64,000 nucleotides of DNA from Eledone cirrhosa (GCA_964016885.1 OZ024745.1:30318001-30382000), one strand, 5' to 3'; shown: positions 7,801 through 63,092, counted from the first letter of the stretch. The notes: a model not told the origin generated them from the sequence alone. Numbers and translations: made by a program.

Positions 7801-10800
7801 ACCCATGCAAGCATGGAAAAATGGACTTGATGGTGATGATTAATTTTATTAAACATACCTTCTTCAGTTGGCGATAATCTTCCTACTTTTGCAGCACCAA
7901 ATAGTATTTCTAATTAAAAAAAAAATAATGTCTTATATATCATTTGAAACAACATATTACATTACCCCCCCCCCCTCATTTTATTATATTATTGAGCTCA
8001 GAGTACAGAGAACTGGAATGAATACTGCAAGGCATTCTATTCAACATTCTAAAATCTCTGCCAATTTGACACCTATATAGGTATGTATATATATATTGAT
8101 ACATATGATAAAGTTATGTATATATATATATTTATAGATATATATGATAAAGTTATATCTTTATAAATACTGTATTATACACCAACATGTATAAATATAT
8201 ACACATATCTGATATGTACGCATGTAAACATGCCAGAAAATACAAATATCCAGATCTAATTGGACCCTCATCAAAAGGTGTGTTTACCATCCAATCAACA
8301 AGAAAACATGCATTTGATGGGTGTATATACTCACTTGCTGTTAGTATTATTCAGAAATGGATGTTTTAAGTTGCATATAATTAGCATTCATGCTAGTAAT
8401 ATATATATTAGGAAGTGTGTTAGCAGCGGAAGTGTACAATAAAGTTATATCTGTATAAATACAGTATGTAACTAAGACTGCATCAATATAATAACTCCTC
8501 CCCCCTCACATTTTTATTTTTATTTTTATTTACAGTTTTTTCTTTTATTCTGTCTTTATTCTACTCTCCGAACTCTGTTATTATTGATGAAAGGCAAATG
8601 CCCAACACGTTGACTGTTTCACTCTCTTTTAAGCATGAAACTAATAAGACATAGTTAATGCATCCTTTTGTTTGTTTTTGTATTCTTGAAAGATATATAT
8701 ATATAGTTAATTAATCAAATTAATTTCAGATTGAGTTGTTAAATTTCTTGAGGACTTTCCCAGCTGTTTCTAGCTTCATATGTCTTCTCATTAATAGCTA
8801 TCAAGCACACGCACAGAAAATTGGTTAGCAGTCGCTACTAAAGTATGGGATTGGTGTGATATGGCAGGGTCTGTGCACATCTGTAAGTATTATTGTTAAC
8901 CTTGGCGACATTTGAATAACTGCGCCAATATTGCATGTGGGCACCTGATATGGAATTATTTGTTTGCTTATTTCAGTCATTCTGACACTAGCAATACATG
9001 ACCACATAAACTCCTCTCCGACGTTCCTTCCATCTCCCCCAATGATAGATGAGAAAGTCAAAATATAGGGGCTAATAAGGTAACTTCATCGCTGGTTTTC
9101 ATTTCATTTTACATTTCTTTTTCTTATTTCCTCCTCTCCTCTCATATCTCAATTCTTCCTACAGCCACCTGATTTGGTAACATGGAGATTTACCCATCTG
9201 CATTGTAGAGGCTTCCAAATACGGTAATTTTTACAATTCCACAATGCTTGAACCAAACTTAAACACTCATATATATATATATGAAAAAGTATGACCCCGA
9301 CGGCAGAGCTCAAGCCGTTTCGATGGTTATTTCTGGAAATAGCCGTCGAAATGGCTTGAGCTCTGGCGTCGGGGTCATGCTTTTTCCTATTCCCACTCTA
9401 CTACCCTAAGTATTGAGTACTCTTGTGCGTTATGGTCCATCTGGTTCCTTACCACAATTCATTTGTTATATATATATATAAATTATTTTAAACGTACCTT
9501 CTTCAGCTGACAGCATTCCTTCTTTTTTAGCAGCCATAATTAGAATTTCTAATGTTTGAAAAAAATTAGCATAATGGTTAAATATCATTTGAAACTGCAT
9601 ATCATATTGAGTTTTTCCCTTATTTTATTATATATATGTATGGATATATGGACTCATAATAATGTCACAGTGACCTACAGCATTTCTTAAGCATTTTCTT
9701 TACACCTGGCAGAGCCCACCTTCTCTTCAGAATGAAATAAAGCCAATTTCTTCCATAGTAAGAAAAGAGAGTGATAGAGAGGAAGTGAGAAAGAGACATA
9801 GAGAAAATAGACACCAGTACTAAACTGATAGTAACTATAACTTTTGATTTGTATGAAACATTATCCCCCTTTTTTTCACTACAGTATATATATATACATA
9901 TATATATATACCCAGTCTGCACTGTAAAGTGGTTTTATAGGTGTCACAACAAAAGGCACCCAGTCCACGCTGTAAAGTTGTCATGTAGGTGTCAAGACAA
10001 AAATCACCCAGTATACTCTGTAAATGTGGTTGGCCTTAGGAAGGTCATCCAGCCATAGAAATCAATACAAAATTAGTTCTGTGTCATCTAAACATGGTCC
10101 TCCAACCTGGATCTCTCACAATAGGTCAGCATGTCCCACCCTTTCTAGCATGACAATGGATGTTAAACGATGATGATGATAATAATTATGATAATGATGA
10201 TATAAACTATTTAAAATAGTTTATCAACACAGTTGCTTGCTAACATTTATAATAATATTTGTGTTTGTACATAACATAAACCTCTCAGTTTCCTTTGTCT
10301 ATTCTATGGAAACTCATGACACTGAATATGTGTGTGTGTGTGTGTGTGTGTGTGCGTGTGTGTGCATGTGAGTATAGTGGTAGAGCTGGGGCTATGACAA
10401 AAAGCATCTAGTTCTCAATGTAAGGAGATAGAAATGGTGACATAACAAAAAACACCCAGCTGATTCTGTAAGATGGTACTGCCAGAGTCATGATAAAATT
10501 CTCCCTGTACATGCCATAAACTGGATGACATTAGGAAGGGCATTCAGCTATTAAAACCATGACAGAATGGACTGTATGAGATTCATCTGACCTTTCTAAC
10601 CAGCCTGAGAGGGTGACAACAGGTCTAACCCATGTAAGTATAGAACAATAGACATAAAATGATAACAATAATAATGATGAGGATATATATATATATATAT
10701 ATATATATATATATATATATATATATATATATATATATATATATATATATATATATATATGCAAGTCTACATATCTGAGGAGCTTCCAATTCCAGAGTGA

Positions 10801-63092: not shown

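Follow-up and report, generated by a model that had tools for sequence, protein, structure and literature searches.

Mini-exons in the analysed window

The window considered here is the whole 64,000-nt stretch of Eledone cirrhosa DNA (1..64000, equal to C5:30,318,001-30,382,000), which lies inside the array of one gene on the minus strand. Comparison of the window with itself reveals three colinear units, about 21-25 kb apart, and all 27 mini-exons of these units were located on the minus strand between 4775 and 63092, with each of nine classes (A to I) occurring three times. Every exon is 45, 48 or 51 nt long, carries an AG acceptor and a GT donor, and has phase 1 at both ends. Within each unit, transcription proceeds from I to A. 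The first-pass annotation had given the span as 7859..63092; the exons within it are real, but it leaves out A1 and B1.

4775..4825, minus strand, exon A1, 51 nt
6704..6754, minus strand, exon B1, 51 nt
7859..7909, minus strand, exon C1, 51 nt
9498..9548, minus strand, exon D1, 51 nt
13756..13803, minus strand, exon E1, 48 nt
15631..15678, minus strand, exon F1, 48 nt (F2 and F3 are one codon shorter)
21897..21947, minus strand, exon G1, 51 nt
23947..23994, minus strand, exon H1, 48 nt
24919..24969, minus strand, exon I1, 51 nt
29017..29067, minus strand, exon A2
30883..30933, minus strand, exon B2
32317..32367, minus strand, exon C2
34191..34241, minus strand, exon D2
36331..36378, minus strand, exon E2
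38163..38207, minus strand, exon F2, 45 nt
39246..39296, minus strand, exon G2
41868..41915, minus strand, exon H2
42665..42715, minus strand, exon I2
47756..47806, minus strand, exon A3
51921..51971, minus strand, exon B3
53358..53408, minus strand, exon C3
54876..54926, minus strand, exon D3
54927..55020, minus strand, upstream intron segment (example; about 75-95 nt, homologous across the nine classes)
56267..56314, minus strand, exon E3
59359..59403, minus strand, exon F3, 45 nt
60363..60413, minus strand, exon G3
62292..62339, minus strand, exon H3
63042..63092, minus strand, exon I3, the window's first exon in transcription order

An intron segment like the one listed precedes every exon and differs by 21% between classes. 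The introns themselves are full of microsatellites and LINE fragments. The F3-E3 intron holds a transposase fragment (58541-59098, minus strand) that we take to be Mariner/Tc1-like, and the other introns contain many LINE fragments, presumably RTE-like, several of them specific to one unit. At 41901-41910, within exon H2, a DNA contig of run X1 (depth 70.6) carries three other letters, which most likely derive from another unit rather than an allele.

The complete array

A profile search over 664 kb around the window returned 169 exon calls, two of which are partial duplicates of exon H and were dropped; four further weak hits yielded no exon. The 167 full-length exons occupy the following interval:

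C5:30,043,598-30,518,794, minus strand, array, 475 kb

All 167 are intact, that is, divisible by 3 in length, free of stops, bordered by AG and GT, and in phase 1. Their lengths are 51 nt in 111 cases, 48 nt in 43 and 45 nt in 13. The array opens with five irregular leading exons and a B and an A, continues through 17 complete units in the order I-H-G-F-E-D-C-B-A, and closes with a last unit of seven. Unit length ranges from 17.6 to 32.1 kb, the block of nine mini-exons being about 22 kb. Joined in order, the exons form 2770 codons with zero stops, while the other two frames of the same strand hold 326 and 174. At intron rates of change, about 8 nonsense and about 15 splice-dinucleotide alleles would be expected; none was seen.

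Introns diverge between units by 4.8-10.1% (median 6.8%). Since all units are about equally diverged, their history appears star-like and they are not false duplicates. The units are 66-89% identical to one another, with 12-17 distinct peptides per class among 17-18 copies. Possible signs of exchange include single introns that differ by as little as 1.7% between units otherwise about 7% apart, and identical exons that occur in distant units. Nonsynonymous differences number 38 between neighbouring units versus 46 between distant ones, tracking the introns, so that closer units are slightly more alike.

It is very improbable that the array or its divergence is an artefact of assembly or reading frame. 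The 3′ end of the gene is duplicated nearby at 98.6-99.4% identity, and some local false duplication is therefore possible. Against this, the closest two units are still 4.8% apart in introns, and no gap falls within the regular array. Only one frame is open, which also rules out a wrong reading frame as the source of the nonsynonymous excess described below. DNA contig depth points weakly in the same direction, at 66-100 on several array introns versus 7.4 on the single-copy exon, in contigs that possibly come from the source sample. Such an artefact is already largely refuted.

Several smaller features accompany the array. The partial duplicates of exon H, at C5:30,184,142 and 30,088,946, adjoin intact H exons, and two copies of the upstream intron segment stand alone, with no exon beside them, at C5:30,478,458 and 30,114,987. 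Between its third and fourth exons the array has a 30-kb intron with helicase fragments (C5:30,503,651-30,507,451) that we presume to be Helitron-like; the sole assembly gap (200 N) falls in it too. Array introns show a strong mutation bias towards A/T, with an estimated equilibrium of about 25% GC versus 37% at present, and CpG transitions occur at about three times the rate of other transitions.

The host gene and its predicted protein

A 416-codon open frame located 15 kb downstream of the array matches Octopus bimaculoides XP_014775115 at 34%. When the long 3′ exon was compared with 1.84 billion representatives, only 2 proteins were returned, both from cephalopods (XP_014775115 and GAB1604762.1). 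A longer O. bimaculoides record, A0A0L8H5Y7, maps colinearly to exons on both sides of the array:

C5:30,741,575-30,704,507, minus strand, matched 5′ exons, outside the window, upstream of the array
C5:30,028,243-30,019,239, minus strand, matched 3′ exons, outside the window, downstream of the array

These flanking exons are colinear with residues 37 to 1680 of the orthologue at 38-76% identity. The long 3′ exon is only 34-38% identical between species, and the gene as a whole is divergent. The nearest matched flanking exons are in phase 1; upstream this is the exon that ends at 30,704,5xx, downstream the long 3′ exon. From strand, order and phase, we infer that the array and its flanking exons belong to one transcript. 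The gene is single-copy: the C-terminal probe has one match in the genome and the N-terminal probe two adjacent exon matches, so both point to one locus. A0A0L8H5Y7/XP_014775115.1 and Argonauta hians GAB1604762.1 are probable orthologues. They share the colinear flanking exons, but the profile of the 17-residue repeat finds no match in either; in the array interval, A0A0L8H5Y7 carries a different, Glu/Lys-rich tract (residues ~735-1000). For 5 small flanking exons, alignment with the orthologue was no better than that of shuffled sequences.

Existing annotation offers little guidance. GAB1604762.1 is hypothetical, and XP_014775115.1 is annotated as 'coiled-coil domain-containing protein 173-like', where the CCDC173 name looks like an automatic low-complexity label. 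The orthologue matches no Pfam family at the cut-off and no Ig or Fn3 domain, with only weak HEAT-type leads; those from the ESM Atlas, in the N-terminal region, score 0.90 and below and are non-specific. Weak homologue searches with this N-terminal region returned none, and a PDB sequence search of the orthologue gave a single match (E 0.25), which was disregarded. For a possible relation to WDR87/WDR97, no support was found: no WD40 turned up in the 12 upstream ORFs run against Pfam (of 123 and 47 candidates), and the weak searches with the N-terminal region gave no homologue. As to WH2, SHOCT and the CARD helix, candidate motifs for the exon peptide, Pfam recognised none of 12 exon peptides (21-23 aa), a search of low power at such length.

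The repeat itself (2770 aa) is rich in Glu, Lys, Ala and Leu, with 2.5% Pro, 1 Cys and 0 N-glycosylation sequons. The consensus of the exon peptide is E-x-L-h-A-A-h-K-K-x-G-h-L-T-x-E-E, which, read with the capping rules of helices, suggests a capped amphipathic helix with a Gly turn. The N-terminus of the orthologue is not hydrophobic, the best 12-residue mean over its first 40 aa being 0.02, and the highest 19-residue hydropathy of the protein is 0.89, giving no membrane segment. Lacking a signal peptide and a membrane segment, the orthologue makes an intracellular helical repeat likelier than a secreted recognition protein. The gene, spread over about 720 kb, would thus encode a so far undescribed protein with at least about 4,000 residues. 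No variant was found in the long 3′ exon in DNA runs X1-X3; on the array, runs X1 and X4 cover introns as DNA does.

Divergence between units

Units 1 and 3 of the window had first been compared by hand, and an exact Nei-Gojobori count returns the same 43 nonsynonymous (N) and 6 synonymous (S) differences, over 344.5 N and 102.5 S sites (pN 0.125, pS 0.059). The per-exon values also agree (I 7:0, G 10:1, C 7:1, D 8:2, A 4:0), the remaining classes being E 3:1, B 2:1, F 1:0 and H 1:0. The intron stretch used for that comparison falls in a 609-nt alignment at 93.4% identity. The whole D-to-C intron differs at 53 of 855 positions (6.2%), and all aligned introns of the two units at 624 of 8915 columns (7.0%). 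Beside C, D, G and I, introns of this pair differ by 4-9.5% versus 14-22% for the exons, so that mosaic ancestry is not supported.

The other two pairs in the window give 47:10 and 49.5:10.5, which makes units 1 and 3 the most extreme of 3. Among pairs of complete units, 136 in all, N:S has a median of 4.5:1 (range 2.8-12.9); the neutral value of 3.1 is surpassed in 126 pairs, and 14 are at least as extreme as 43:6. The count of 43:6 shows a real feature by its strongest pair, and the excess is smaller over all units. Earlier wording, by which the differences were almost entirely nonsynonymous, therefore captured a real excess but overstated it, since neutrality alone would give about 3.1:1 here. 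Similarly, the concentration of change in C, D, G and I is confined to units 1 and 3; over the 18 units, dN/intron is 2.07 in these classes versus 1.90 in A, B, E, F and H, which does not set them apart; G is the fastest class across the array and E the slowest.

All pairs within 162 exons yield pN 0.125 and pS 0.087. Pairwise distance is 0.063 at fourfold sites, 0.068 in introns, 0.112 at second positions and 0.145 at first positions. Fourfold divergence (6.3%) thus matches that of introns (6.8%), and protein-changing positions differ about 1.5-2 times as much as silent or intron positions. Intron divergence was taken from BLAST-aligned, gap-trimmed columns and may run slightly low. The excess also recurs one duplication level deeper, between classes: the consensuses of the six 51-nt classes give pN 0.358 and pS 0.195, with 0.209 for the upstream intron segment.

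Tests for selection

A codon model was fitted to 160 exons; its mutation rates and trees were derived, for each class, from 1000 columns of flanking intron. A reversible matrix yields dS/intron of 0.92-0.98, dN/intron of 1.68-1.84 and omega of 1.78-1.97. A non-reversible, AT-biased matrix gives dS/intron of 1.16-1.21 (not different from 1), dN/intron of 1.9-2.0 and omega of 1.56-1.70 (p 5.5e-4 to 7e-5). Under other trees, omega is 1.45 (exon-only, p 0.01), 1.57-1.68 (local) and 1.85 (star). With all copies included, as the first-pass annotation had proposed, dN/dS accordingly stays above 1 in every model, from 1.45 to about 1.95. Pairwise N:S is 4.70 (bootstrap 3.6-6.4) versus simulated neutral medians of 3.1-3.2, a value reached in 0.6%, 0%, 1.8% and 2.5% of neutral simulations under four set-ups. 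When genealogies unrelated to the assumed trees were simulated, 10 of 350 neutral runs gave omega of at least 1.7 and 29 of 350 at least 1.45; the former places the p value under worst-case conversion near 0.03.

Other counts are less decisive. Counting distinct derived alleles once leaves an N/S excess of 1.26-1.35 (p 0.07 and 0.03), with only about 50 distinct synonymous alleles behind the comparison, and a tree-free test on singletons gives N/S of 1.04-1.12, which is not significant. Nonsynonymous alleles are shared by a mean of 2.19 units, synonymous alleles by 1.58 and intron alleles by 1.91 (p ~0.035). Individually, 2 of 9 classes (B and G) reject omega = 1. The dN/intron estimate is at least 2 at 12 of the 17 motif positions, and 13 of 150 codons, scattered over 7 classes, exceed a posterior of 0.95; the pattern of NWD/PRDM9-type arrays, in which selection targets a handful of contact codons while the rest of the unit is homogenised, was not found. 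The most enriched nonsynonymous change is A>G (35 versus 12.7 expected), and 10 of 12 change types are at least 1.17 times their expectation. GC-biased conversion is ruled out as the cause because W>S, S>W and GC-neutral changes all show the excess.

These results support the earlier proposal of diversifying selection with frame and splice sites kept, at moderate strength (p ~0.02-0.03 when genealogies are treated as unknown). Moderate, diffuse diversifying selection among the 18 intron-bearing units, affecting most codons and classes, is the likely reading of the sequence comparisons, and positive selection is probably the cause of the nonsynonymous excess.

An account without positive selection seems unlikely, although several observations fit it. 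It would combine neutral amino-acid drift with a raised input of substitutions into exons (clustered changes, or conversion between classes) and silent sites held down by splicing enhancers in the purine-rich mini-exons, the synonymous rate equalling the intron rate by coincidence. Consistent with a raised input, N and S singletons both stand at about 1.4-1.5 times the intron expectation, at a ratio of 1.04-1.12, and 94 of 206 derived alleles equal the state of another class versus 79 expected. The diffuse spread over positions, the inclusion of radical changes (1.58 for BLOSUM -2 or lower versus 1.97 for conservative ones) and the worst-case p value would also suit drift. However, two effects would need to cancel at two duplication levels. 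Intron columns adjoining exons are little raised (0.053-0.087 within 100 columns versus 0.057-0.073 further out), and changes cluster 1.6-fold over random in exons, compared with 1.4-fold in introns. Conversion between classes has little support as the main cause, with three consecutive sites switched to another class in only 2 copies.

Probable serial inclusion of the mini-exons

Two uses of the array can be envisaged. The exons may be included constitutively and in series, or they may serve as a repertoire for alternative splicing, being either mutually exclusive, like Dscam exons, or skipped in combinations, with selection diversifying the cassettes of 15-17 residues inserted into one protein. 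As all exons are symmetric in phase 1 and multiples of 3, any subset would remain in frame. The diversity of peptides per class, the homologous intron segment before every exon and the absence of the repeat from both named homologues would likewise accord with a repertoire, which nevertheless is a doubtful explanation. The complete lack of stop and splice losses is hard to reconcile with an exon that serves one in 167 transcripts, and the nine-exon order is strictly kept through 18 units. The upstream segment diverges between classes like synonymous sites. A docking complement to one copy's segment, sought in both flanking introns, did not rise above shuffled controls (21 and 20 of 24 pairs versus 19-22); the test was a crude one, based on that copy's segment, ungapped 24-nt windows and 8 shuffles. 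A still less likely form of this alternative is a vast intracellular set of variants, in which the 167 mini-exons supply 17-residue helices in nine-exon register and selection keeps the cassettes different. That every exon has been retained, when skipping one would leave the frame intact, points to the use of all of them and to the importance of register, and constitutive inclusion in series is the arrangement we consider probable.

Comparison with known repeat systems

The excess of nonsynonymous change had been likened to recognition or arms-race proteins, an analogy that the predicted protein does not bear out. A secreted or surface molecule (egg coat, immune receptor or effector) with repeats in an arms race would explain dN/dS above 1 and the divergence of the whole gene between species, and the 18 units of about 150 aa resemble the 22 repeats of about 150 aa reported for VERL (PMC3567151). 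Nonetheless, such a molecule is quite improbable, in view of the non-hydrophobic N-terminus and missing membrane segment of the orthologue, the near absence of Cys and sequons from the repeat, the Glu/Lys/Ala/Leu composition with weak HEAT-like leads at the N-terminus, and the diffuse nature of the excess. Neither a signal peptide nor Cys-containing extracellular domains of the VERL type were found by hydropathy, composition and Pfam.

Related arrays differ from this one in distinct ways. Abalone VERL is an extracellular ZP-N array in which internal repeats are homogenised and selection acts on repeats 1-2 (PMC3567151). It is likewise molluscan, with about 20 units of about 150 aa, whereas the internal units described here are far from homogenised and all diverge. 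Within fungal NWD (het-d/het-e) WD40 arrays, in-gene repeats exchange sequence and paralogous units are under positive selection, at 4 binding-surface codons in repeats that are otherwise homogenised (PMC1805685). Selection among paralogous units is common to both, but here the excess falls on most positions of an intron-separated helical motif in a single-copy gene. The titin PEVK region belongs to a giant intracellular protein with many short, tandem-duplicated exons and transposon-rich introns, and its positive selection was described between species, on orthologous exons, at 20 codons in 6 exons (PMC6469411). In our case the comparison is between copies, the motif is Ala/Leu/Lys/Glu-rich rather than Pro-rich, and the Ig and Fn3 domains of titin were not found. 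Dscam employs mutually exclusive exons for parts of Ig domains, and one low-power study detected neither positive selection nor conversion among its paralogues (PMC3236188). Dozens of tandem paralogous exons in one gene are shared with the Dscam clusters; the nine-exon period, the possible signs of conversion and dN/dS above 1 are not. No description of this locus was found in the literature covered, which takes in few subscription journals.

Proposed explanation

Our preferred explanation, to which we assign a probability of roughly 0.5 as a whole, is a single gene with serial helix repeats whose copies have been selected to differ. A 22-kb block of nine mini-exons is present in 18 copies inside this gene; it would have expanded either in a burst or through steady turnover, after which short gene-conversion tracts may have shuffled exon variants between units. 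The exons are likely spliced serially to give, within an intracellular protein, a predicted chain of short helices 2,770 residues long; each exon would supply one helix-plus-turn and nine of them a 150-residue super-repeat. Such a protein could be a long scaffold or filament in which register matters, as no exon has been lost, and in which units fare better when unlike each other. Selection likely favoured amino-acid differences between copies while every exon was kept usable. The diffuse acceleration suggests selection for difference as such, more than adjustment of a single binding face.

The least secure part of this account is the selective agent. Tentatively, we favour selection on how a fast-evolving structural protein assembles or binds its partners, with the male germ line as a guess. 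Avoidance of misfolding between neighbours is an idea known from titin Ig domains (PMC4660218). In its simple, neighbour-specific form it was rejected, because neighbouring units are not more different than distant ones.

Repeats within a gene usually homogenise or stay conserved. At this locus the 18 copies are of equal age, and their introns provide a built-in neutral reference; at both nested levels of duplication, amino-acid sites have diverged more than this reference and more than fourfold sites, yet no exon has been lost. The array is missing from the two public cephalopod homologues found. The locus makes it possible to ask directly whether selection acts to keep tandem protein repeats unlike one another.

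Other features of the region

The last two matched exons at the 3′ end of the gene, together with about 19-21 kb of surrounding sequence, occur in two copies of 98.6-99.4% identity (C5:29,987,168-30,026,870, L047-L051), either through a recent duplication or because the assembly contains a haplotype duplicate. A LINE fragment immediately upstream of the long 3′ exon encloses an LTR retrotransposon (L052:580-4760), which we take to be of the Ty3/gypsy type; its two terminal repeats are similar, and its coding region is split among several frames. The downstream neighbour gene, on the opposite strand, contributes a RhoGAP exon (L047:3114-3746, plus strand). In the intron upstream of the array, a long satellite with a unit of about 57 bp extends over C5:30,542,000-30,582,000. 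Upstream of the gene lies an intronless 522-codon frame of UDP-glucose pyrophosphorylase type (C5:30,810,528-30,812,093, minus strand, L091), possibly a retrocopy.
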